Shown in pieces: positions 20,707-47,062 of a stretch of 64,000 nucleotides of DNA; position 1 is the stretch's first letter, and every line of letters starts with the position of its first letter. The position numbers and the translations under genes are program-made. Location of the stretch: the NCBI GenBank assembly GCA_903884375.1, contig CAISER010000025.1, positions 1,637 through 65,636 of the forward strand. The letters run 5' to 3'. The notes under the pieces were generated by a model. That model had not been told where the DNA came from and did not search any database. It saw only the letters and a program-made list of their open reading frames with translations. Origin of the DNA: Candidatus Collierbacteria bacterium. GTDB taxonomy: Bacteria > Patescibacteriota > Microgenomatia > UBA1400 > MFAQ01.

Positions 20707-22827
20707 TTATGCGGGATTTTTCAACAACTTGGAAGCAATATTGTTTGGTAGTTCTTGATAATGACTTGGTTCCATATAATATGAGGCACGACCGGCAGTA
20801 AGTGAACGAATAGCAGTAGCATAAGATGAAAGTTCTGAAAGAGGAACAGTTGCCGTAATAACACGTGCGTTGCCTCTTTGGGCAGTACCACCAATTTGAG
20901 CACGTCTGGCTGATAGATCTCCAATAATATCGCCCATATTGGCTTCCGGCGTGGTAACTTCGACTTTCATAATTGGTTCGAGAATAACCGGACCGGCTTG
21001 TTTGACAGCGTCTTGAAGAGCCATAGATCCCGCGATTTTGAAGGACATTTCCGAAGAATCGACTTCGTGGAAACTTCCATCGACAACTGCTACATCGAGA
21101 TCAACCATCGTAAAACCAGCGATAATACCGTTGTCAAGGGCTTCACGAACACCTTTTTCGATAGGATTAATAAATTCACGAGGAATCGTGCCACCAACAA
21201 TTTTATTAGTAAATGTGAAGCCTTCTCCGCGAGATTTTGGAGTAACAATTAAAATACAATGTCCATATTGTCCTCGACCACCCGATTGACGAATGTATTT
21301 TCCCTCGCCTCGAGCTTCTTTGGTAATAGTTTCACGATAAGCAACTTGAGGAGCCCCCGTGGTAGCGTCAACTTTAAATTCACGACGAAGACGATCAACT
21401 AATATTTCCAAATGTAATTCACCCATACCGGCGATGACAGTTTGGCCTGTTTCATGATTTGTTTTAATCTTGAAAGTTGGATCTTCTTCCGCCAATCGTC
21501 CAAGAGCAATATCCAATTTTTCTTGATCTGCTTTTGTTTTTGGTTCAATAGCTAGTGATATAACCGGATCCGGGAAGTCGATTGACTCAAGAACGATAGG
21601 TTTTGATTCGTCACAAAGAGTATCGCCTGTTTTAGTAGCTTTTAAACCAACAATACCAACAATTTCACCTGCTTTGGCTTCTTGAATTTCTTCTCGAGTA
21701 TTAGCATGCATGAGCATTAAACGACCAAGGCGCTCTCTTTCTGACTTACTGGCGTTGAAAACATATGAACCTGCTTGGATTTTCCCTGAGTAAAGACGTA
21801 CATAGGTAACTTTTCCAACATGAGGATCTGCTTGGATTTTGAATGCTAAACCCACAAAGGATTCATCAGGACTGGGTTTTCTTGTTTCGGCTTCTTTGGT
21901 TTTGGGGTTGATCCCTTCTGTGTCGGCAATATCGAGAGGAGAAGGGAGAAAATCGACAACAGCGTCAAGGAGAGGCTGGACACCTTTATTGCGTAGCGAA
22001 GAGCCAGGAAAAACTGGAACAATTTCGTTATTGATGGTAGCTTTGCGAAGAGCCGTTTTAAGATCTGCCATTGAAGGTTCCTCGCCATTTAAGTATTTTT
22101 CCATTAAGACTTCATCGGTTTCGACAATTGACTCGATGAGCTTACCTCTTTCACTTTCACACTCCGACTTCATGTCTTCGGGGAAACCATCGGTAACATC
22201 ATATTTGGCACCGGTTTCGTCACCTTGCCAAATAATAGTTTTTCTTTCCAAAAGAAGCGCGACCCCCTTGAAAGTATTTTCAACTCCAATAGGAAGCGCC
22301 ATGATGGCAGTTTTGGCTCCAAGTTTTTCATGGACATCTTTTATGGTAGCCATAAAATCGGCTCCCAAGACATCCATTTTGTTGATTAGAGCAATACGAG
22401 GTACTTTGTATTTATCAGCTTGACGCCAAACAGTTTCTGTTTGAGACTGAACTCCGCTTCCTGCATCAAGAACAATAATGCCACCATCAAGTACGCGGAG
22501 GGAGCGTTCCACTTCAGCTGTAAAGTCTACATGTCCTGGGGTATCAATAATATTAAAACGACAGTCCTCCTTGATGTTGGCATCAGCTAAAACAGGAGTC
22601 CAAAAAGTTGTGGTGGCAGCAGATACTATGGTGATACCACGTTCACGCTCTTGATCCATCCAATCCATTTGAGTATCTCCTTCATCAATATCACCAATTT
22701 TATAAGTTTTTCCAGTATAAAAAAGAATACGTTCGGTGGTTGTGGTTTTTCCAGCGTCAATGTGAGCAATGACACCAATATTTCTAACACGATCAAGTGG
22801 TACTTGTTTTGAGACGGGTGCAGCCAT
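20707..22827 (-). CDS. fusA: elongation factor G
   Basis: AHIDAGKTTTTERILFYTG, DTPGHVDF and NKMD motifs. 706 aa. Confidence 0.97.
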   Translation of the reverse strand: MAAPVSKQVPLDRVRNIGVIAHIDAGKTTTTERILFYTGKTYKIGDIDEGDTQMDWMDQERERGITIVSAATTTFWTPVLADANIKEDCRFNIIDTPGHVDFTAEVERSLRVLDGGIIVLDAGSGVQSQTETVWRQADKYKVPRIALINKMDVLGADFMATIKDVHEKLGAKTAIMALPIGVENTFKGVALLLERKTIIWQGDETGAKYDVTDGFPEDMKSECESERGKLIESIVETDEVLMEKYLNGEEPSMADLKTALRKATINNEIVPVFPGSSLRNKGVQPLLDAVVDFLPSPLDIADTEGINPKTKEAETRKPSPDESFVGLAFKIQADPHVGKVTYVRLYSGKIQAGSYVFNASKSERERLGRLMLMHANTREEIQEAKAGEIVGIVGLKATKTGDTLCDESKPIVLESIDFPDPVISLAIEPKTKADQEKLDIALGRLAEEDPTFKIKTNHETGQTVIAGMGELHLEILVDRLRREFKVDATTGAPQVAYRETITKEARGEGKYIRQSGGRGQYGHCILIVTPKSRGEGFTFTNKIVGGTIPREFINPIEKGVREALDNGIIAGFTMVDLDVAVVDGSFHEVDSSEMSFKIAGSMALQDAVKQAGPVILEPIMKVEVTTPEANMGDIIGDLSARRAQIGGTAQRGNARVITATVPLSELSSYATAIRSLTAGRASYYMEPSHYQELPNNIASKLLKNPA

Positions 22828-22946
22828 ACTTTTTGTTGTTTTGTTTAATTGTATATTTTGACGAAATAAATCTGTCCGTTATTGGGACATATTTCACGAG
22901 CTTAATTTTACCATAACACTATAGCTATGGGTATAAATAATGGCGA

Positions 22947-25007
22947 TTAATGACGGAATCGGTGGCGGGAGAAGTGTTTCGAATTTTGAGATTTTTTTTC
23001 TTGCCGTTTTTGGTGTTTCCCAAAATTACGAAATAGATCCGGAAGATAATCTTTTAACCAATCTTTTTTTACTTCCAAGCAGGTACAAGCAAAAGTTTTT
23101 CCTTGAGGGTTGATAAAGATTTCATTGGCCACTAAGAATGAACCTTTGGATGGATAGCTGTTGAAATAGACAGAGTTGGGATGAATATAAATGTTAGACT
23201 TGGTTCCATCAACTTTTTTATAATAAAATTTATCAGACTTTTGAATTAGATTGCCAATAAGACCAGCCGTAATTGCTTGATGAATGGCATCTTTTCTGAT
23301 AATCGGCTTAGTGTTGGGATCAATATTGATTTGATGGTTGGCTAAGACAGTCAAAATATCCAAACGAACGTTTTTGGCTTCTTCAAGAACTTTTTCGTTG
23401 AAATAATTTTGTTTTGCCCAATCGTCACTGTAACCACTGGCGGCATATGCTTTCCAAATATTGAGCAGAACAATAAAATCTGAGTCGTTATTATTGATAT
23501 ATTGATCATGAGCTTTGTCAGCGAGGATTGCCTGGGCAGCTTCTTGAGGTCTGATAAATAAATTTTTCCCATCTAGAAGAGAAGCAATTATGACTATTTC
23601 ATTGACACAATTTATTTTTGGATCTAACGATTCAATAATCATGCGACCCAAACAAGGTTCTACCGCCAACTCAACTAACCAATCGCCTATTTCGGTAATT
23701 TGGCCTGATTCGTCCAAAGCACCAAGAGAAGTAAGAAGATTTAGAGCTTGAATGAGATTCTCGCTGCCTGGGTGATCCATAAAATCAAAGTTTCCAACAT
23801 TTTCGATGCCGACTTTTTTCATTGCGAGAACAACTTGGGACAAGTTGGAGCGTTGAATTTCAGGCGTTTGATACTGAGGGCGGTGTTTTAAACTTTCTTC
23901 AGTAAATAATCGATAACAATAGCCTGGTGCAGTGCGACCTGCTCTTCCTTTGCGTTGCTCTAAACCACTTATGGCGTGTTCAATAAGTTCTAACTTTTCA
24001 ATCCCGGATTTTGGATCAAACTTTGTTTGTTTAATTAGTCCGGAGTCGATAACGTGAATAACCCCATCGATAGTTACAGAGGTTTCGGCAATATTGGTAG
24101 CAATAATTATTTTTCTTTTGGGTGTAATAGTAAAAATATTGTCTTGCTCTTCTGGGGGTAGCTCTGCATGAAGAGGAAGAATTTCGACATCTGAAGAGCC
24201 CAACATTGCTTCAATTTTTTCAACTGTATCAGCAATTTCCTTTTTACCTGGCATAAAAATGAGAATATCTCCTTCGAGTTTTTGGTCGATGATCATTTTG
24301 ACTTTTTCGGCAGCGCCTTTGGTAAAGTCATAGTTGTAGGGAATTTCATTTTCGTAAAATATTTTTACGGGATACATTTTCCCAGGAATTTCAACCGAGT
24401 TATTGTTATCCTTCATGCCAATGTATTCAGCAAATCTATTCCGCTCAATAGTAGCCGAGGTAACAATGACACGAATAGGATCAACTCCAGCACCCAAACG
24501 ACGTTCGTTGACATCTTTAAGAAGTCCAAGGCAGAGATCAATGTTCAAACTGCGCTCATGAGCTTCGTCAACCATGACAATGGCGTAGTCAGTGAGCAAT
24601 GGGTCAAATTGAATTTTCCTTAATAAAATACCATCCGTCATAAAAGTAATGTCGGTGTTGTCCGTTGTCATGTCTTCAAAACGAATATGGAAACCTACCT
24701 GATCACCAACTTCACATTGCATCATTTCGGAAACACGACTAGTAACACTTCTTGTGGCGATTCTTCTGGGTTGAGTAACTGCGATTCCCCCCTTAAGTTT
24801 GAGCTCGTTTCGAAGTTCAAGGAGAAGAGGCGGTAAACAAGTGGTTTTGCCTGAACCGGTTTCTCCGATAAGAACAAAGTTTTGATGCTGTCTTATTTCT
24901 TGACGCAATAAATTTCTGAGATTGGCGACAGGAAGCCTATCCAAATTTTCAAGAGCATATTCCGACGAACAAATTTGTCGATTAATAGTATTTATTTCAG
25001 GTTTCAT
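22947..25007 (-). CDS. DEAH/RHA-family ATP-dependent RNA helicase (compact HrpA/HrpB/DHX-like)
   Basis: Motif I GETGSGKTT, motif II DEAHER, motif III TSAT, motif V TNIAETSVTI and motif VI QRKGRAGR. These are followed by an HA2-like region (LGALDESGQITEIGDWLVELAVEP) and an OB-like C-terminus with a basic tail. Confidence 0.85.
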   Translation of the reverse strand: MKPEINTINRQICSSEYALENLDRLPVANLRNLLRQEIRQHQNFVLIGETGSGKTTCLPPLLLELRNELKLKGGIAVTQPRRIATRSVTSRVSEMMQCEVGDQVGFHIRFEDMTTDNTDITFMTDGILLRKIQFDPLLTDYAIVMVDEAHERSLNIDLCLGLLKDVNERRLGAGVDPIRVIVTSATIERNRFAEYIGMKDNNNSVEIPGKMYPVKIFYENEIPYNYDFTKGAAEKVKMIIDQKLEGDILIFMPGKKEIADTVEKIEAMLGSSDVEILPLHAELPPEEQDNIFTITPKRKIIIATNIAETSVTIDGVIHVIDSGLIKQTKFDPKSGIEKLELIEHAISGLEQRKGRAGRTAPGYCYRLFTEESLKHRPQYQTPEIQRSNLSQVVLAMKKVGIENVGNFDFMDHPGSENLIQALNLLTSLGALDESGQITEIGDWLVELAVEPCLGRMIIESLDPKINCVNEIVIIASLLDGKNLFIRPQEAAQAILADKAHDQYINNNDSDFIVLLNIWKAYAASGYSDDWAKQNYFNEKVLEEAKNVRLDILTVLANHQINIDPNTKPIIRKDAIHQAITAGLIGNLIQKSDKFYYKKVDGTKSNIYIHPNSVYFNSYPSKGSFLVANEIFINPQGKTFACTCLEVKKDWLKDYLPDLFRNFGKHQKRQEKKSQNSKHFSRHRFRH

Positions 25008-25120
25008 TTAGGCTGAATTAGATTAACATAAGAAGGTGAAAATATGTATAGGTGTTGTATATATGTATCTAGTGTCGTTAATTAATGATTGATGCGCTTG
25101 ACTGACGGAAAATACAAAAT

Positions 25121-25142
25121 AAGCGCCCAATTAAGGGCGCTT
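25121..25142 (-). terminator. intrinsic terminator downstream of the 61-aa gene
   Basis: AAGCGCCC-AATTAA-GGGCGCTT, a perfect 8-bp stem. On the minus strand it is followed by ATTTTGTATTTT. Confidence 0.7.
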
Positions 25143-25148
25143 TTTAAT

Positions 25149-25334
25149 TTATTCCGGTTCAGAAGGAAATTGAGCCGGGCAGTCGAATTGTCGAAAATCT
25201 GGTTTGGTTTCGGGGAGAGCCTGGTTCTTTGGTAACGATAACAAATCATCGTTACTGTTTTGGGAATTGGTGGCGGGTGCTGCTGGGGCAACGGGTTCGT
25301 TCTTTATAGATTTATTCGGTAGGCGTTTAGACAT
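25149..25334 (-). CDS. small (61 aa) Pro/Asn-rich acidic protein of unknown function
   Basis: The ATG at 25334 is preceded by the strong SD AAGGAGGT. Protein is MSKRLPNKSIKNEPVAPAAPATNSQNSNDDLLSLPKNQALPETKPDFRQFDCPAQFPSEPE. Flanked by its own promoter-like element and terminator. Confidence 0.6.
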   Translation of the reverse strand: MSKRLPNKSIKNEPVAPAAPATNSQNSNDDLLSLPKNQALPETKPDFRQFDCPAQFPSEPE

Positions 25335-25375: not shown

Positions 25376-25517
25376 CAAACACTTATTTGCTAGGTAGGAT
25401 ACAACACAATTTCCTTTTGTCTTTTTAATATCGCTCTCGGTGAAACGAATTATTTGATACATATATCCATAATAAACCCAAACATTTAACTAATCAATAC
25501 CGAATCAATATATAACA

Positions 25518-25541
25518 AAACACCCCGTTTCCGAGGTGTTT
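25518..25541 (-). terminator. intrinsic terminator after rpsG
   Basis: On the minus strand: AACACC-TCGGAAACGG-GGTGTT followed by TTGTTATATATT. It lies about 25 nt after the rpsG stop. Confidence 0.5.
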
Positions 25542-25565
25542 CTAATTATTCTATATATTATAGGA

Positions 25566-26041
25566 CTACCATCTAAAATGAGCGAAGGCCTTGTTACTTT
25601 CAGCCATTTTGTGTGTATCTAGCTTTTTCTTGATTGCTGAGCCTGTGTTTTCATGAGCTTCCATGACTTCAGCAGCAAGTTTATCAGCCAGAGTTCTGGT
25701 TGGGTTGTTGGATCTGGCCTTGGCAGCATTCAATATCCAACGAATAGCAAGTGAATCGCGACGCTCCGGACGAATGGGAGTTGGGACCTGATAAGAGGCT
25801 CCTCCAACACGACGAGAACGAACTTCAATGTTTGGTTTGACATTTTCGATAGCTTCAGAAAGAAACTCTAGGCCGTTTTTGCCTGATTTTCGGCAATGAT
25901 ATCAATGGCGGTATAAATTTGTTTGGCAGCAACTGATTTTTTGCCTTCGAGCATACAACCATTAATGATCTTGGATACCAACTCACTTCCGTAAATTGGA
26001 TCAAGTTGAATTTTTTTAGTTGGGGTTTTTTTTGATCTCAT
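25566..26041 (-). pseudogene. rpsG: 30S ribosomal protein S7 gene interrupted by a 1-nt deletion in an A4 run (probable assembly artefact)
   Basis: Manual translation from the ATG at 26041 gives MRSKKTPTKKIQLDPIYGSELVSKIINGCMLEGKKSVAAKQIYTAIDIIAE, then a premature TAG at 25870-25868. The adjacent frame continues KSGKNGLEFLSEAIENVKPNIEVRSRRVGGASYQVPTPIRPERRDSLAIRW...HKMAESNKAFAHFRW to the stop at 25566. The span is 476 nt (3n+2). Confidence 0.85.
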
Positions 26042-36256: not shown

Positions 36257-38419
36257 TTATTTCTCTTTCAGCTCAAACTTGATGTTTTTTAGAGGAATAT
36301 AGTTGGCAAAAACAGGAATTTTGGGAGATATTCTGATGGTCAGATGGTCAAAACCTTGGATTGTGGTAAAAAAAGGACGAATATCGGCGGCCGGTTTCCC
36401 TTTGATAAATCCAGCAGTTTTTATCTCATCAATTTTAGGAAAAAGACTGGTTTCCACATTTATTTTGGCTTCATAGAAACTTCCTTTATTGGTGGGAGTT
36501 TCAAGTTTCATGGAAGTGTTACCGGGAAAAATTTCCGAACCGGAAGAAATTTTTGGAGAAAGCTGATTCGAAACTAACTGAAATAATCCGTCTTCGGAAT
36601 AAACAAGTGTTTCAACAGAACCTTCTAAATCAAGGTTGAGAACGGTGGCTTCTTCACCAACATTTTTATCAAAAGTTTTTTTGGTATAGGTAAAATCAGA
36701 CAGGGCTAAGGATTTATAACCCGTTGTTTGATCCCCTGTCGATGATTGAATCTGGGACGTTATCTTTTCACCAGCGATTTGAAGTAATTTTTCTTGATCA
36801 ATTTTCGAAACTGCTTGAACAGCTCTCGACGTACCACCGGAAAAGTCTGAGTCCGCCACAGCTACAATGGTGTTTTTTGAGTAGTTATCAACTGAAAAAG
36901 CAGAATTTTTGGGTAGATTGTGATCGGCACCAATTTTAGTAGCAGTTACTTTTACGCCTGAGGCAATTCCATAAGCACCCTGAACAATACCGACATCGGC
37001 GCTTTTGGAAGCGATGGTAATAGCCTCAGTAATGAGATAAGAATATTTGCCATTATCAGATAAGATTGAAGCACCTGATTTTAGAATAATCGGAGCAGTT
37101 GATTTGTTGGCGACAGTGATAATACCATTAGCTTTATCACCAACTGTTGCTTCTCCAGTGGTTGGAATTTGTTCTTTGGCGGAACCGAAAACTGTTTTTT
37201 TGGTGGCAAGTAGAGTTGGCGAACCGGAAATAGTGCTCTCGGCTATTGAAATTGAAAATTGATCGTTAATTTTTTCAGGTTTGAAATATATAGAGATGAT
37301 TGCTTGGCCGGTAAAAAGATAAAAAACAAAGCCTAAAATCAAAAATGCGGGAATAATAAGAAGATATAACCAGGAAAATTTACTTATTTTTAAGTTTGGA
37401 AAGTGAAATTTGGGTAATGAAGGAAGGGGTAGGGTATATTTTTGTTTGGGAGTTTTTATAAGAAGCGGTTCTTCGGGTTCAATAGCATATTCCGATTCTT
37501 CAGGTTCCGTTACCGATTCTATAATTGGCTCGGGCGGAGCTTTTTCAAGTGAGTCTGGAGCGGTTGATTCTTCGTAAGAAAAACCCAATTCACTTATAGA
37601 AGATGGTGTAACTTCGGGGATATAAATATTTGTTTCTTCTCGCGGAAGACTTTCTTCGTGAGTGTCTTCGATAACTTGCCCGGTAAGGTACTGAACAGCT
37701 TCGGTTCCTCCGGTGAGAGCAATGGCTTTAATACTAAAATCAACTGCCAATACTTCAACTTTTGGCATGTGCTGAAAAGGAAGGCGTTCTTGCCACGGAT
37801 GTGAAGTTATTCGTTGTTCCTCTTCTTCCAAGACTCCACCGTTAGTGAGAATAAAACGAGTGGGAAGTTTTTCGTGGCCGATCACGGTAAGCCCTTCTTC
37901 TACATCTTGTGCGAGGTCATCTGACCTTGCAGCTTCTTCTGAAGAAGTAATTTCACCTTTTTCTATAATTGAAACAACAACTTTGGTGGTATAAATCTCT
38001 AACAGAATAGCTGTCGGAGGAATACCTTCAAGTTTTTTCATGTAATGGGCAATTGCCGAGTTTATGGGAACCATACCAATCGGGTTAAGGCCCAACTCTT
38101 TTACCAGTCTGGCAATAAGTTTCGTTTTTGAAGGATGTATTTTGCCGTCATGTATCCAAGAATCCGGCAAACCAAAAATGACTTTACGCGGTTCTGCTTT
38201 AATTATTTTGACAGCTTGTTCGAGAGAGGCATCAACACCATTAATAAGTGAGTCTTCATCGGTCCAAGACTCAAATGAACCGACACTTACAACCGAAGGA
38301 TTGCCATTGGCAATTTCCCAAAGGGCGGTTTTGATTAAAGATTCATGGATTTCGATGGCCAAAAAATATTCCGGTTCTGTGGATTTTGATTTGTTCCCAA
38401 ATAGATTTACAAGATTCAT
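36257..38419 (-). CDS. bitopic membrane protein: cytoplasmic PilM/FtsA-like actin-fold domain, acidic/Pro linker, TM helix, large beta-rich external domain
   Basis: The N-terminus FLAIEIHESLIKTALWEI...LGLNPIGMVPINSAIAHY...LEIYTTKVVVSII resembles PilM/FtsA ATPase folds. TM helix is FSWLYLLIIPAFLILGFVFYLF. The C-terminal ~350 aa is Ser/Thr/Gly-rich. Start placed at the ATG at 38419 (the track start is a TTG). Confidence 0.5.
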   Translation of the reverse strand: MNLVNLFGNKSKSTEPEYFLAIEIHESLIKTALWEIANGNPSVVSVGSFESWTDEDSLINGVDASLEQAVKIIKAEPRKVIFGLPDSWIHDGKIHPSKTKLIARLVKELGLNPIGMVPINSAIAHYMKKLEGIPPTAILLEIYTTKVVVSIIEKGEITSSEEAARSDDLAQDVEEGLTVIGHEKLPTRFILTNGGVLEEEEQRITSHPWQERLPFQHMPKVEVLAVDFSIKAIALTGGTEAVQYLTGQVIEDTHEESLPREETNIYIPEVTPSSISELGFSYEESTAPDSLEKAPPEPIIESVTEPEESEYAIEPEEPLLIKTPKQKYTLPLPSLPKFHFPNLKISKFSWLYLLIIPAFLILGFVFYLFTGQAIISIYFKPEKINDQFSISIAESTISGSPTLLATKKTVFGSAKEQIPTTGEATVGDKANGIITVANKSTAPIILKSGASILSDNGKYSYLITEAITIASKSADVGIVQGAYGIASGVKVTATKIGADHNLPKNSAFSVDNYSKNTIVAVADSDFSGGTSRAVQAVSKIDQEKLLQIAGEKITSQIQSSTGDQTTGYKSLALSDFTYTKKTFDKNVGEEATVLNLDLEGSVETLVYSEDGLFQLVSNQLSPKISSGSEIFPGNTSMKLETPTNKGSFYEAKINVETSLFPKIDEIKTAGFIKGKPAADIRPFFTTIQGFDHLTIRISPKIPVFANYIPLKNIKFELKEK

Positions 38420-38430
38420 GACGACAGTCG

Positions 38431-40269
38431 TCAAACAAATTGTAAATAAAGGCGGCGTGTCCCTGCGCCAAGCGACTCTTGTTTGACTATCTTTATCTTA
38501 GCAAGTTCTTCAGTGTTCGTCACGTGGGGACCTCCACAAATCTCTTTGGAAAACGGATTATTTTTGTTCCCGATGGTGTAGACACTAACAATATCAGGAT
38601 ATTTTTGTCCAAAAAAGGCCATGGCACCTTCTTTTATTGCTTTTTCTTTAGGCATTTCTTCGCGGGTGACCGCTTGTTTTTCTGCGATAGTTTTATTAAT
38701 TAATTCTTCGACCTGTAGGAGCTCTCCGTCTGTTAATTTTTCTGGGTGAGAAAAATCAAACCTTAGTCTTTGCGCTGTTAAATTTGAACCTTTTTGACCA
38801 ATATGGTTTCCAAGTATTTGACGTAGAGCCGAGTGAAGAAGATGAGTAACAGTATGATAAGCGGTGACTGTTTTTGAGTTGTCTTCAAGACCACCCTTAA
38901 ACATACCAACAGAAGCAGTCCGACTAAGTTCTTTGTGTTTTTCAAATTCGGTTTCAAATTGATTGGTATCGATTTTAATATCCATTTGAGACAAAATCTC
39001 TGTGGTAATTTCAATGGGGAAACCGTAGTTTTGGTAAAGGTCAAAGGCTGTTTTCCCATCAATGTGGGGGTTTTTTTGAAGTTCTTTAATTCCTTTATCG
39101 AGTGAGAAACCAAATTTTTTTATTTCTACCCTTATCGTTTCAAAAATAACCGGAATATCTTTTTTTATTTCAAAATATATGGGTGAGTAAAATTGACAGA
39201 CAAGTGAACTTATTGGAGCCATCTTTTCCAGTATTTCGAGATTGCCTGTAAGAAAATACATTTTTACAGCTGCGCGGCGAAGTAGTCTTCTTAAAACATA
39301 GCCTTGAGCTTTATTTGTGGGGAAAACTCCGTCTTTAATCAAAAAAGTTGCAGCAGTTAAATGGTCTGCAATAACTCGCATTGAGGGCTGATTGATAACA
39401 TCAGAGTAAGACTTACCAGATATTTTTTCGATTTCTTGAATCAGGGGGTATAGGCTGCTAATTTTAAACATATCCGGTTCGGAATTGGTAACTGCTTCGA
39501 GTCTGGTAAGCCCACCACCAAAATCAATATTTTTTCGAGGAAGCTCCACCAAAGAACCGTCTTCATTTTTAATATATTGCATAAAAACAGAATTACCAAT
39601 TTCCAAGAAACGTCCACATTCACAGTTGGGGTGACATTTTTCATTTTTAAATGGTGATTTTTCATGAAGCAGACGATTTTCACCAAAATCAAAGAAAACT
39701 TCAGAATCTGGACCGCCTGGTTCACCTGGGGGCATATTTTCCGGCACCCCTGCTCTAGACCACCAATTTTTATTTGACTGATAGGCAAAAATGCGCTCAC
39801 CTTCTTTTGCCGTAAGACCGACTTTTTTAAATAAATCTTGCCAGATGGCAATTGATTCAATATCCTTACCCACTCCAGAACCACCCCCAAATACCGTGAT
39901 AAATAATTTTTTAGGGTCAAGACCAAGACCTTCATCTTTTTTTGTTAAAAATGTAAAAAACCATTCGAGCTGTTTGTCTTTAAAATAATCGCCTAAAGAC
40001 CAGTTCCCTAACATTTCAAAAAAAGTGGTATGACGATTATCACCAATTTCATCAATGTCACCAGAACGGAAACATTTTTGAGAATCAACCAGACGGGTAC
40101 CAAGGGGATGTTTTTGACCTAATAGATAAGGCATCATGGGTTGCATCCCAGCGGAAGTAAAGAGAGTAGTGGCGTCACCTTCTGGAACTAACGAAGAAGA
40201 GGGAATAATGGAATGACCTCGTTTTTCCATAAATAAGAGATATTTCTGCCTTATTTCATTGATGGTCAT
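38431..40269 (-). CDS. alaS: alanine--tRNA ligase lacking the C-Ala domain
   Basis: FTSAGMQPMMPYLLG class II motif. Editing-domain metal motifs HTVTHLLHSALR and CGGPHV. The protein ends right after the editing domain (612 aa). Confidence 0.9.
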   Translation of the reverse strand: MTINEIRQKYLLFMEKRGHSIIPSSSLVPEGDATTLFTSAGMQPMMPYLLGQKHPLGTRLVDSQKCFRSGDIDEIGDNRHTTFFEMLGNWSLGDYFKDKQLEWFFTFLTKKDEGLGLDPKKLFITVFGGGSGVGKDIESIAIWQDLFKKVGLTAKEGERIFAYQSNKNWWSRAGVPENMPPGEPGGPDSEVFFDFGENRLLHEKSPFKNEKCHPNCECGRFLEIGNSVFMQYIKNEDGSLVELPRKNIDFGGGLTRLEAVTNSEPDMFKISSLYPLIQEIEKISGKSYSDVINQPSMRVIADHLTAATFLIKDGVFPTNKAQGYVLRRLLRRAAVKMYFLTGNLEILEKMAPISSLVCQFYSPIYFEIKKDIPVIFETIRVEIKKFGFSLDKGIKELQKNPHIDGKTAFDLYQNYGFPIEITTEILSQMDIKIDTNQFETEFEKHKELSRTASVGMFKGGLEDNSKTVTAYHTVTHLLHSALRQILGNHIGQKGSNLTAQRLRFDFSHPEKLTDGELLQVEELINKTIAEKQAVTREEMPKEKAIKEGAMAFFGQKYPDIVSVYTIGNKNNPFSKEICGGPHVTNTEELAKIKIVKQESLGAGTRRLYLQFV

Positions 40270-45697: not shown

Positions 45698-47062
45698 ATG
45701 GAAAAATTGGTGAAAGAAAGAGTGATTCGAATATTTAATTTATCAGAGGATGTTTGGCCTTTTATTGAAACGATGGGCAACAAAAAGGCAAGAATGTCGG
45801 AGATTGAGGAAAACGCAAACTTGGCCGACCGTGATTTGTTTTCAATGGCTGAGGAGTTTGAGTTTACCTTTATCACTCCCAAAAAACTGGATCCCCATTT
45901 CGTAAACTACTTTATCAAAGTTTGTATGATGCGGGAAATGGAAGTATTGGTTCCCAAAAAAAATAGTGGACTTATTTGTGAGGATATTTTGGCGGATAAG
46001 GAGATTATGAAGAGGCTTGTTAAACTGGGGAAGAGCTGTAAAAGATTGGTGCTTACCGCCTACTCTACTTCGCCATATTTTTTACACTTGGTTGGCGAGT
46101 TACGGAAAAAGGGAATTGAAGTACGAACACCAGAAGCTCCAGATGAGGCTAATGCTTGGACGGTAAATTTTTACGGAAGCAAATCGGGGATAAGACAACT
46201 GACACAGATAAACGGGGCAATTAGAGCGGACTTGAAAATGCCTAATGGAGTTGTTTCCTCGGGAGTGTTGGACTCTGCAAGGATAGCGGCAAATAAATAT
46301 ATAAAGGAAAATGGAGTAGTAATCAAAACAAACAAAGGCCACTCAGGAATGGGAGTACTTATTTTCCGTAAAGGTGATTTGCCGAAAAAATATCGAGAGT
46401 GTCAGAAAAAAATTATTGAAATATTTAACGGAGACAGTTACTGGGAAAAATTTCCGATCGTGGTGGAGTCTTTGGTAAAACCCAATCCTCGGATCGGAGG
46501 AGGTTTTCCAAATGCGGAGTTTTTGATAAAAAAAGATGGCGAGGTAAAACTTTTGTATTACTGTGGAATGCGAGTAGACGACAAGGGCGTTTTTGGCGGA
46601 GTGGAGATAGGAGAAGAAGTATTGCCTCGTCGTGTGACTTCCAGAATTACCGATATCGGTTATCTAATTGGCGAACAGTATGCCGAAGACGGTTATCGTG
46701 GTTTTTTTGATATTGATTTTATTGCCGGAAAAGGTGGAGAGATATTTGTGAATGAGTCGAATGTAAGAGTCACTGGAGGAACACATGTGTATCAAGCAGC
46801 AGTAGAACTGGCTGGGCGAGAGTTTATGAAGAAAGTCTATGTGTTGTCGAATAATAACTACGATATTCCAAACAAAAAAATCTTTACTTTCGACAGACTT
46901 CATAAACTAATGAAACCGATACTTTTTGACAGAAAAACGCGTGAGGGATTGGTGATTGCATCGTCAAATCTATTGGCAATGGGAAAACTGGCTTACATTA
47001 TTTTTGGAAAAAATAAACGTAGAGCTTTGGCCGTCGAGGAAGAGATGACGAGATTATTATAA
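45698..47062 (+). CDS. ATP-grasp ligase with pre-ATP-grasp domain (PGM1-like peptide-ligase family, tentative)
   Basis: YGSKSGIRQL..., the central strand VVIKTNKGHSGMGVLIF, and the Mg/ATP-site region FFDIDFIAGKGGEIFVNESNVRVTGGTH. One of only four plus-strand genes. Confidence 0.55.
   Translation: MEKLVKERVIRIFNLSEDVWPFIETMGNKKARMSEIEENANLADRDLFSMAEEFEFTFITPKKLDPHFVNYFIKVCMMREMEVLVPKKNSGLICEDILADKEIMKRLVKLGKSCKRLVLTAYSTSPYFLHLVGELRKKGIEVRTPEAPDEANAWTVNFYGSKSGIRQLTQINGAIRADLKMPNGVVSSGVLDSARIAANKYIKENGVVIKTNKGHSGMGVLIFRKGDLPKKYRECQKKIIEIFNGDSYWEKFPIVVESLVKPNPRIGGGFPNAEFLIKKDGEVKLLYYCGMRVDDKGVFGGVEIGEEVLPRRVTSRITDIGYLIGEQYAEDGYRGFFDIDFIAGKGGEIFVNESNVRVTGGTHVYQAAVELAGREFMKKVYVLSNNNYDIPNKKIFTFDRLHKLMKPILFDRKTREGLVIASSNLLAMGKLAYIIFGKNKRRALAVEEEMTRLL

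Follow-up and report, generated by a model that had tools for sequence, protein, structure and literature searches.

Among bacterial gene pairs, the rpsG-fusA junction is usually one of the most stable. In the 64,000-nucleotide stretch of a Candidatus Collierbacteria contig analyzed here (the window), it is interrupted by a gene for a compact helicase. What kind of helicase this is, and whether its position says anything about its function, are the questions raised by this locus. The gene order on the minus strand was rpoB, rpoC, rpsL, rpsG, helicase, fusA, tuf, rpsJ, rplC, and rplD, which confirmed the original prediction that the helicase gene is located between rpsG and fusA on the same strand (Table 1).

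Table 1. Features of the rpsG-fusA region, with positions in the window
Feature	Position	Strand	Basis and details
rpsG (S7), frameshifted	25566..26041	minus	Split ORFs; intact 158-aa gene on public contig L001
Terminator-like hairpin right behind rpsG	25517..25542	minus	Scan match; 11-bp stem
Small ORF, 61 aa	25149..25334	minus	AAGGAGG Shine-Dalgarno sequence; called as a gene on L001
Terminator-like GC hairpin (AAGCGCCC/GGGCGCTT) and T-run	25112..25142	minus	Scan match at 25142-25121; adjoins the helicase promoter motif upstream
Helicase extended -10-like motif TGTTAATCT	25020..25028	minus	Consensus match; 12 nt upstream of the ATG
Compact helicase CDS	22947..25007	minus	ORF, motifs, Pfam; 686 aa, minimal DEAH/RHA, HrpA lineage
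fusA extended -10-like motif TGGTAAAAT	22905..22913	minus	34 nt past the helicase stop codon
fusA leader stem-loop	22860..22897	minus	Outer GUGAAAU/AUUUC stem, inner GUCC-loop-GGAC stem, then a U-rich tract; conserved
fusA (EF-G)	20707..22827	minus	ORF; Pfam families of homologous loci; next gene downstream of the helicase

The translation carried every DEAH/RHA motif that had been claimed for it, namely, GETGSGKTT (residues 48 to 56), DEAHER (147 to 152), TSAT (183 to 186), TNIAETSVTI (304 to 313), and QRKGRAGR (351 to 358). SF2 DEAH/RHA motifs I, Ia, Ib, II (DEAH), III (SAT), IV, V, and VI were present, together with two RecA-like domains, and the motif residues showed no variation across an alignment of 27 sequences. 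The claimed HA2/OB-like C-terminal domains and basic tail were also found. Pfam matched DEAD, Helicase_C, HA2_N (WH), HA2_C (ratchet), and OB_NTP_bind, and the layout was RecA1, RecA2, WH, HB/ratchet, and OB, followed by a basic disordered tail (residues 662 to 686) ending in KHQKRQEKKSQNSKHFSRHRFRH (residues 664 to 686). K, R, and H together accounted for 8 or more of the final 25 residues in 69 of the 75 proteins of the compact clade (see below). An AF2 model of the helicase had a pLDDT of 83.6, with values below 50 for the tail and for residues 1 to 13. According to Foldseek, it aligned with Prp22, DHX8, DHX15, and HrpA at TM scores of about 0.75 to 0.80 over about 650 columns.

The helicase gene is under purifying selection, with a dN/dS of about 0.1 (range, about 0.07 to 0.13). 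All seven substitutions separating the gene from its counterpart on a 99.5%-identical public contig (L001) were synonymous. These values and the invariant motif residues ruled out a pseudogene or nonfunctional ORF, and the low dN/dS ruled out positive selection behind the rapid divergence of the helicase described below. Neither the helicase nor the 61-aa small ORF had a match in PADLOC, so that a defense-system reading was unsupported.

We then considered the family of the protein, which had been thought to be closer to eukaryotic Prp43/DHX-type enzymes than to HrpA. A eukaryote-type helicase (Prp43/DHX15/DHX8-like) would either have been acquired from eukaryotes or be their direct bacterial counterpart. 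As far as size and raw PDB scores are concerned, the proposal stood: the length is near that of the crystallized eukaryotic cores, and the top PDB sequence and fold matches were DHX8, DHX15, and Prp22 (419 bits for DHX8, 36 to 37% identity, TM score of about 0.78), compared with 359 bits and a TM score of 0.75 for E. coli HrpA. The helicase resembles DHX8/Prp22 and DHX15/Prp43 in having the same five domains in a core of about the same length; these eukaryotic proteins are extended at the N terminus and rely on G-patch cofactors, whereas no G-patch partner of the helicase was detected in the window. However, the order of the PDB matches depends on which cores happen to have crystal structures and on how far the E. 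coli protein has diverged, and hundreds of bacterial relatives scored far higher, at 560 to 865 bits. The nearest relatives in the library were 45 to 49% identical (560 to 640 bits) and mostly 1000 to 1500 aa in length, with an N-terminal core; some are labeled Patescibacteria or Parcubacteria helicases in the source records. In neighbor-joining trees (100 bootstraps, about 620 to 660 columns), whose deep backbone was weak (42% or less), the compact clade was joined with a long sister, P0121 (1498 aa), at 100% bootstrap. A clade comprising DHX8, DHX15, and seven coclustering proteins, most of them with N-terminal extensions, excluded the helicase at 99%, the first two being named eukaryotic sequences and the other seven being assigned by tree position and architecture. 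Clade labels in general rest on source-record names and architecture, and the representative proteins mostly carry no taxonomic names. The phylogeny thus contradicted the eukaryotic affinity. The GC content and codon usage of the gene, which are like those of the flanking genes, also argue against it, and we regard this explanation as largely refuted and extremely improbable. As judged from the sequence comparisons, the helicase core groups with Patescibacteria HrpA-like proteins and is bacterial, not eukaryote-like.

HrpA was indeed the top NCBIfam model (472 bits, versus 361 bits for HrpB), at a score under the HrpA equivalog cutoff (TIGR01967/PRK11131, 472.6 bits versus 722.75 and 427.8 versus 1400, profile positions 63 to 688 of 1284). 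Membership in HrpB was ruled out, because the score with TIGR01970 was under the cutoff of 546, the match covered only residues 25 to 483, and there was no HrpB_C match in Pfam. The helicase shares the RecA1/RecA2/WH part with E. coli HrpB (residues 25 to 461 or 25 to 483), but the match ends before the HB and OB domains, and the PDB HrpB entry scored 210 bits. The protein therefore lies outside ordinary HrpB, in keeping with the original prediction. With E. coli HrpA, the RecA1, RecA2, WH, HB, and OB domains are all homologous, with 35% identity over HrpA residues 75 to 665 (BLASTP). Unlike E. coli HrpA, the helicase is without about 74 N-terminal residues (the first aligned positions are residue 75 of HrpA and residue 23 of the query) and without the beta-meander, HB2, DUF3418 alpha+beta, and Hook domains that come after the OB fold. 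No Pfam match to DUF3418 was found in the 686-aa protein, which stops about 25 residues past the OB fold and bears a basic, His-rich disordered tail instead of the C-terminal region. Another difference is the location of its gene between rpsG and fusA. In contrast to the helicase, P0121 keeps the beta-meander and HB2 region, and its alignment to E. coli HrpA extended as far as residue 868; P0123 carried a DUF3418 match. Because it groups with a long sister keeping HrpA domains beyond the OB fold, the helicase looks like a trimmed HrpA, derived by loss of both the N-terminal domain and the C-terminal region.

E. coli HrpA is a rescue helicase for collided ribosomes, and its C-terminal region is required for disome binding and ribosome splitting; HrpA 1-783 is active as a helicase, yet it neither splits ribosomes nor complements the deletion (PMC11419001). 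Since the collision-sensing C-terminal region is absent, the collision-sensing mechanism of E. coli HrpA would not be expected for the helicase studied here. HrpA-like helicases without this region (CTR-less) also exist in Spirochaetota (e.g., Treponema), Paceibacterota, and Saccharibacteria. They are likewise compact bacterial DEAH/RHA proteins with an N-terminal core and are 35 to 47% identical to the helicase over query residues ~20 to 680, but they belong to different clades of the tree, and none of their 75 examined loci was in the str region. The spirochete case that has been studied is Borrelia HrpA, reported to be an RNA helicase with an effect on the amounts of many proteins (PMC3144200, PMC3868530).

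Although the position between rpsG and fusA was confirmed, the idea that the gene is embedded in the str operon overstated its operon membership, since terminators precede the helicase and separate -10 motifs were found for the helicase and fusA. The 558-bp spacer between rpsG and the helicase contained a terminator-like hairpin, the 61-aa ORF, and a second terminator-like hairpin; a counterpart of the latter, also GC-rich and with a T-run, was present in L002, L082, L083, L086, L088, L091, and L099. The 61-aa protein is acidic and Pro-rich with a C-terminal PSEPE, and no Pfam match was found for it. Its versions in relatives are 49 to 106 aa long (106 aa in L082 and 73 aa in L099), some with a Cys motif. 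The rpsG frameshift at this locus results from a one-base deletion in an A-run near position 25891, as compared with L001, and is probably an assembly error. Rfam searches of the entire 64-kb window at the gathering threshold and of two intergenic regions at an E value of ≤1 gave nothing meaningful, the only matches being subthreshold ones to terminator hairpins.

The helicase start has no Shine-Dalgarno sequence, which, together with a -10-like motif only 12 nt from the ATG, implies that the mRNA has a very short leader or none. The motif TGTGTTAA(T/C)CT was found at the same place upstream of the helicase in most aligned loci of the str region and in L099, whose helicase is 51% identical; L003 differed, with TGTGGTATTCT. 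The 119-bp gap between the helicase and fusA contained a promoter-like motif and a fusA leader hairpin, both conserved. The fusA motif, of the format TGnTAAAAT, was also found before fusA in L097 and L098, two loci that lack the compact helicase. The inner stem of the leader, read from single-sequence folds and by eye, retained pairing in its variants (GCCC/GGGC in L003 and CUCC/GGGG in L098). RNAalifold was uninformative for this leader because MAFFT had set the hairpin out of register, and the stem-loop had no Rfam match. Promoters and terminators were called as consensus matches, and overall the promoter scan showed no enrichment relative to shuffled sequences (10 matches versus 11.3 expected); the case for the promoters therefore rests on conservation across loci. 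With an upstream terminator and its own conserved extended -10-like motif, separate from that of fusA, the helicase appears to form its own transcription unit between two operons. No canonical terminator was found in the helicase-fusA gap, and some read-through from the helicase into the fusA-tuf unit is therefore likely.

Next, the gap was compared across relatives. A genome scan included at least five close relatives among the matches listed (80 loci), and a metagenome scan with a single protein gave four loci. The rpsG-helicase-fusA order was found in at least 10 examined relatives, with helicase identity down to 51% and S7 identity down to 73%. About 10 further helicase clusters had a longest contig equal in size to one bearing an S7 homolog and appear to share a contig with S7, giving about 20 clusters when the examined loci are included. 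The arrangement is thus kept in a sizeable lineage and is not a recent one-off insertion. As to the concern that the gene might be found at unrelated loci in close relatives, the orthologs of sister lineages do lie elsewhere, two of them after rplS. In a second subclade, the order was dnaE-rplS-helicase, with a gap of 3 bp in L092 and about 420 bp in L004; other orthologs adjoin ABC transporters, glycosyltransferases, or unknown genes. In related Collierbacteria, the rpsG-fusA gap contained a DUF559 endonuclease, small ORFs, a ParE/YafQ-like toxin, Fic/RhuM, or unknown ORFs, and a DEAD-box helicase occupied it in L097. The compact helicase was the commonest occupant among the examined loci and, where present in the gap, always adjoined the fusA promoter. 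No integrase, repeat, or PADLOC signals were detected at the locus. The adjacency to fusA, the rplS arrangement, and the DEAD-box helicase of L097 could mean a link to translation that is tighter than "general remodeler" suggests.

The helicase evolved 3 to 5 times faster (dN/dS) than the neighboring genes. Between L091 and L002, RpoC and FusA were 94 to 96% identical, compared with only 60% for the helicase, and the L091 helicase grouped with helicases from other loci. Between L083 and L086, dS was 1.29 for the helicase versus 0.44 to 0.54 for the flanks. The dS excess and the discordant tree position of L091 make allelic replacement by recombination possible. The rpsG-fusA junction in Collierbacteria is an old break point turned variable island.

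Taken as a whole, the best explanation, to which we give a probability of about 0.75, is a functional minimal HrpA-lineage helicase that appears to form its own unit in a variable gap and would most likely act as a general RNA/RNP remodeler. By homology with other DEAH/RHA enzymes, it would be an ATP-driven 3'-to-5' translocase on single-stranded RNA, with the RNA path running through a tunnel between RecA1/RecA2 and the WH-HB-OB module. The disordered tail of about 25 residues, rich in Lys, Arg, and His, would probably provide nonspecific tethering to RNA or RNPs. Consensus motifs suggest expression from its own extended -10 element behind the upstream terminator, with a very short leader devoid of a Shine-Dalgarno sequence. 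In Collierbacteria-type Microgenomates, the rpoBC-rpsLG and fusA-tuf-S10 units are parted by a gap that behaves like a variable island. In a reduced genome, such a remodeler would plausibly act on mRNA or ribosomal particles.

The role in ribosome or rRNA remodeling that was originally suggested is possible, but genomic position is weak evidence for it. A stronger version would make the helicase a dedicated translation factor, for ribosome rescue or splitting or for rRNA or subunit maturation, with expression coupled to fusA and the basic tail as a replacement ribosome anchor. The deep conservation of the fusA adjacency, the roughly 20 clusters in which the helicase and S7 apparently share a contig, the dnaE-rplS-helicase order, the DEAD-box helicase in the L097 gap, the missing terminator before fusA, and the rescue function of E. 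coli HrpA (PMC11419001) all point in this direction. Yet the C-terminal region and Hook are absent, and HrpA 1-783 is inactive in rescue (PMC11419001). The promoter-like motifs are separate, the fusA motif and leader are unchanged in helicase-less loci, orthologs are also found beside ABC transporters, glycosyltransferases, and unknown genes, unrelated cargo fills the gap in related genomes, and the helicase dN/dS is several times that of its neighbors. We consider a dedicated translation factor possible but rather unlikely. A more specific variant, in which the helicase and the upstream small Cys-rich or acidic protein are a helicase-cofactor pair directed at ribosome splitting or maturation, analogous to G-patch/DEAH pairs, seems quite improbable. 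If it were true, the place at the head of fusA-tuf and the DEAD-box gene of L097 would reflect selection for coexpressing an RNA helicase with elongation factors.

At the other extreme, the helicase could be neutral cargo of a permissive interoperon gap, exchanged by recombination between conserved flanks, in which case its position would be functionally uninformative. The variable gap content, the conflict between the helicase tree and the flanks of L091 and L002, and the dS values of L083 and L086 are consistent with this, but codon bias in the highly expressed flanking genes may account for part of the dS excess. Neutral cargo would also fit poorly with purifying selection, with the helicase being the most frequent occupant and always next to the fusA promoter, with a promoter motif and an upstream terminator kept over deep divergence, and with the absence of integrase, repeat, and PADLOC signals. 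This explanation is unlikely.

A functional remodeler of the HrpA lineage thus remains our preferred reading, and it corrects a tempting misreading: the DEAH helicase of this Candidate Phyla Radiation (CPR) bacterium, at first sight "eukaryote-like," looks like a domain-stripped HrpA. The variability of the gap matters for synteny- or operon-based function prediction in CPR genomes that uses this gene string. Purifying selection on a whole motor-only clade suggests that a lone HrpA motor may have a job of its own or be recruited in some other way.

We examined the minus strand around the helicase, where rpoB, rpoC, rpsL, rpsG, the helicase, fusA, tuf, rpsJ, rplC, and rplD follow one another. 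This order bore out the original prediction that a DEAH/RHA helicase lies between rpsG and fusA on the same strand. The distances are 558 bp from rpsG to the helicase and 119 bp from the helicase to fusA, and the GC content is flat across the helicase region. All of the motifs predicted for it (GETGSGKTT, DEAHER, TSAT, TNIAETSVTI, and QRKGRAGR) were found in the translation, as was the basic tail (KHQKRQEKKSQNSKHFSRHRFRH), and the motif residues were invariant in 27 sequences. Pfam matches to DEAD, Helicase_C, HA2_N (winged helix), HA2_C (ratchet), and OB_NTP_bind confirmed the expected HA2/OB-like C-terminal domains. An AlphaFold2 model, with 27 homologs as input, had a mean pLDDT of 83.6, with values below 50 only at residues 1 to 13 and 662 to 686, and gave TM scores of about 0.75 to 0.80 against Prp22, DHX8, DHX15, Prp2, Prp43, and E. 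coli HrpA. Across the compact clade, i.e., the short Microgenomates helicases including the window protein, the tail is kept in its Lys/Arg/His-rich composition and not in its sequence (of 75 proteins, 69 have eight or more K, R, or H residues among their final 25). The dN/dS ratio of the helicase was 0.07 to 0.13 (Nei-Gojobori), compared with 0.02 to 0.05 for rpoC, fusA, and tuf. These substitution rates clearly point to purifying selection, though at ratios 3 to 5 times above those of the three other genes. When the window was compared with a public contig 99.5% identical to it (L001), the helicase genes differed at seven nucleotides, each a synonymous change that leaves the protein identical. 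The rpsG copy of L001 is intact (158 aa), and the window copy lacks one A in an A-run near position 25891. Because S7 is normally indispensable, this frameshift is probably a homopolymer assembly error and not the mark of a pseudogene. A second assembly difference between the two contigs is a 2-nt gap at 25510. Elsewhere in the window, two large ORFs lie amid housekeeping genes (their neighbors encode AlaRS, FtsK, RNase J, PNPase, DnaK, and LepA), and neither had a Pfam match at E<=1e-5.

Features of the helicase locus, other ORFs of the window, and the rplS-linked arrangements (window positions unless a locus is named)
Feature	Position	Strand	Remark
rpsG	25566-26041	minus	two frames in the window
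Terminator-like hairpin	25542-25517	minus	just 3' of rpsG
Small ORF	25149-25334	minus	61 aa; AAGGAGG Shine-Dalgarno; rpsG-helicase spacer
GC hairpin and T-run	25142-25121	minus	rpsG-helicase spacer
Putative helicase extended -10, TGTTAATCT	25028-25020	minus	12 nt from ATG
Helicase ORF	22947-25007	minus	686 aa
Inverted repeat TACCCATAAC...GTTATGGTA	22914-22940	minus	directly 3' of helicase stop codon
Putative fusA motif TGnTAAAAT	22913-22905	minus	conserved leader stem-loop, then U-rich tract
fusA motif with leader	22860-22913	minus
Large ORF	36257-38434	minus	725 aa
Large ORF	45698-47062	plus	454 aa
dnaE-rplS-helicase, L092	5468-8010		3-bp gap; another Collierbacteria subclade
dnaE-rplS-helicase, L004	2668-5657		another Collierbacteria subclade

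The helicase had been thought closer, by its size and architecture, to eukaryotic Prp43/DHX enzymes than to HrpA; the comparisons did not support such an affinity. Homologs with 55 to 100% identity came from Microgenomates MAGs (named Collierbacteria, Woesebacteria, or "Microgenomates group") and were nearly all 666 to 715 aa long. In a library of 1.8 billion proteins, the best-scoring representatives outside that clade showed 45 to 49% identity and were mostly 1000 to 1500 aa long, with the helicase core N-terminal; several were named Patescibacteria or Parcubacteria helicases, and one had a DUF3418 match. Eukaryote-type architectures, extended far on the N-terminal side and once also carrying an S1 domain like that of DHX8/Prp22, appeared only at about 37 to 41% identity (about 400 to 430 bits). 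Neighbor-joining trees with 100 bootstraps were built from the cores of about 130 library representatives, the Microgenomates loci, E. coli HrpA and HrpB, and human DHX8 and DHX15, the last two transcribed from PDB alignments; few references are named in these trees, and the deep backbone support is at most 42%. The compact clade received 100% support, as did its union with a sister group made up of P0121 (a library representative of 1498 aa) and forms of about 710 to 810 aa. DHX8 and DHX15 formed a clade apart (99%) with seven co-clustering proteins, most of them N-terminally extended. This clade excludes the window protein, and a eukaryote-type enzyme was therefore rejected. An HrpB identity was likewise rejected, since the NCBIfam HrpB profile gave 361 bits and matched only residues 25 to 483. 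The top NCBIfam match was HrpA (472 bits, with a cutoff of 722), confined to profile positions 63 to 688 of 1284. The alignment of P0121 to E. coli HrpA runs to residue 868, through the HrpA-specific beta-meander and HB2 region and into the first part of the C-terminal region. The window helicase aligns only with residues 75 to 665 and, unlike E. coli HrpA, has neither the N-terminal domain nor the post-OB region. DHX8 and DHX15 ranked above E. coli HrpA in PDB searches by sequence and fold; this ranking reflects the choice of crystallized cores and the divergence of E. coli HrpA, not ancestry. Our conclusion from sequence comparison is that the helicase appears to derive from the bacterial HrpA lineage, with its N-terminal domain and everything beyond the OB fold lost.

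The rpsG-helicase-fusA arrangement proved to be conserved within the lineage but not universal. Its layout (rpsG, a spacer of 133 to 604 bp or more, the helicase, 98 to 154 bp, and fusA) was found in relatives with helicases 82% (L082), 76% (L083 and L085), 72% (L086), 68% (the contig of library representative P0018), 67% (L002 and L003), 64% (L088), 61% (L091), and 51% (L099; S7 73%, RpoC 78%) identical to that of the window. About 20 helicase clusters, the examined loci included, appear to share a contig with an S7 homolog, as matched by the equal size of each cluster's longest contig; in eight of these matches, the contig is no longer than 10 kb. Orthologs with 55 to 64% identity also lie outside the gap, behind rplS (L092 and L004), beside ABC transporters (L090), beside glycosyltransferase-like ORFs (L005, according to the ORF list only), or beside unknown genes (L093 and L006). 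In the pairing with rplS (L19), the helicase independently adjoins a ribosomal-protein gene a second time. Among the matches listed, 75 loci from more distant groups (Saccharibacteria, Paceibacterota, and Spirochaetota) all had the helicase outside the str region. The loci with the helicase in the gap fell at three places in the helicase tree, namely, a main clade (89 to 91%), L091, and L099 (backbone at most 42%). The gap may be the ancestral helicase site, with later relocations.

The gap was also surveyed in relatives by look-ups anchored on S7 and not on the helicase. After rpsG, L098 (S7 75%) has three unknown ORFs and then fusA; L097 (S7 78%) has seven genes, including those for a 398-aa DEAD-box helicase and a ParE/YafQ-like toxin, and then fusA; and L096 (S7 82%) has unknown ORFs and a Fic/RhuM protein gene, with fusA absent within 5 kb. 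The spacer of the P0018 contig carries a DUF559 endonuclease-like gene. In Collierbacteria, the rpoBC-rpsLG and fusA-tuf-S10 blocks are separate, with varied cargo gathering between them, and the str junction in this lineage is an insertion hotspot. The DEAH helicase is its commonest occupant among the loci examined and, wherever present in the gap, always adjoins fusA. Most spacers upstream of it (window, L082, L083, L086, L088, L091, and L099) contain a small gene that has a strong Shine-Dalgarno sequence in front and a terminator behind it. Versions of 73 to 106 aa have a common Cys motif (CP...C....C..W.....CG), and others, including that of the window, are acidic, rich in Pro, and terminate with P(S/Q)(E/D)PE; the L082 version has both parts. 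The small ORF had no match in Pfam or PADLOC, and its product could be a helicase partner.

The helicase loses identity far more quickly than its flanks do. Between L083 and L086, RpoC and FusA are 99% identical and the helicases 75%; the sliding nucleotide identity falls from about 91% to about 70 to 80% over the spacer and helicase, and dS is 1.29 for the helicase and 0.44 to 0.54 for the flanks. Between L091 and L002, RpoC and FusA are 95 to 96% identical and the helicases 60%. This divergence fits occasional allelic replacement between conserved flanks, as does the L091 helicase, which groups in the tree with helicases from other loci, in discordance with its own flanks. Part of the helicase excess could stem from dS being lower in highly expressed genes.

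An alignment of the loci with the helicase in the gap showed that the GC hairpin and T-run upstream of the helicase are conserved. In most of these loci, the motif TGTGTTAA(T/C)CT, an extended -10 of the form TGnTAAnnT, is found 8 to 24 nt 5' of the helicase ATG, and the helicase start is then without a Shine-Dalgarno sequence. Given the distance of TGTTAATCT from the ATG, the helicase leader would be very short or absent. The fusA motif and leader also occur in L002, L003, L082 to L091, and L097 to L099; L097 and L098 lack the DEAH helicase yet keep both. The inner stem of the leader shows compensatory variants (GUCC/GGAC, GCCC/GGGC, and CUCC/GGGG). The element had no Rfam match and may be an attenuator or autoregulatory element of the fusA-tuf unit. 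Because no canonical terminator was found between the helicase stop and the fusA motif, read-through from the helicase into fusA is plausible. The inverted repeat past the helicase stop, seen in the window, L082, L083, and L086, has no T-run and overlaps the fusA -10 motif with its 3' arm. Its possible roles include a hairpin that closes the helicase mRNA at the 3' end and occlusion of the promoter. These promoter and terminator assignments are putative, at the level of consensus. A generic promoter scan gave no enrichment over shuffles, and the promoter argument therefore rests on cross-locus conservation.

E. coli HrpA splits collided ribosomes, for which it requires ATP hydrolysis, downstream mRNA, and its C-terminal region with the Hook domain; a fragment of residues 1 to 783 keeps RNA unwinding and loses ribosome splitting and deletion complementation (PMC11419001). 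The Collierbacteria helicase would be an ATP-driven 3'->5' RNA translocase, presumably recruited without the collision-sensing domains of HrpA, and its basic tail probably lends it a general affinity for RNA or RNPs. The original prediction took its place among translation genes to suggest work on ribosomes or rRNA. We consider a dedicated ribosome role rather unlikely. A ribosome-related role would be compatible with the conserved rpsG/fusA neighborhood, with the second arrangement, in which the helicase follows rplS, and with the presence of a DEAD-box helicase in the same gap of L097; it is weakened by the putatively independent promoters of the helicase and fusA, the variable cargo of the gap, and the orthologs at unrelated loci. 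We found no literature linking HrpA-type helicases to the Candidate Phyla Radiation, and these proteins already carry the label "HrpA-like RNA helicase" in databases. What is new is an entire clade that appears to retain only the HrpA motor and a basic tail, the siting of its helicase where the rpsG-fusA junction was broken long ago, and the nature of that junction as a variable island in Collierbacteria.
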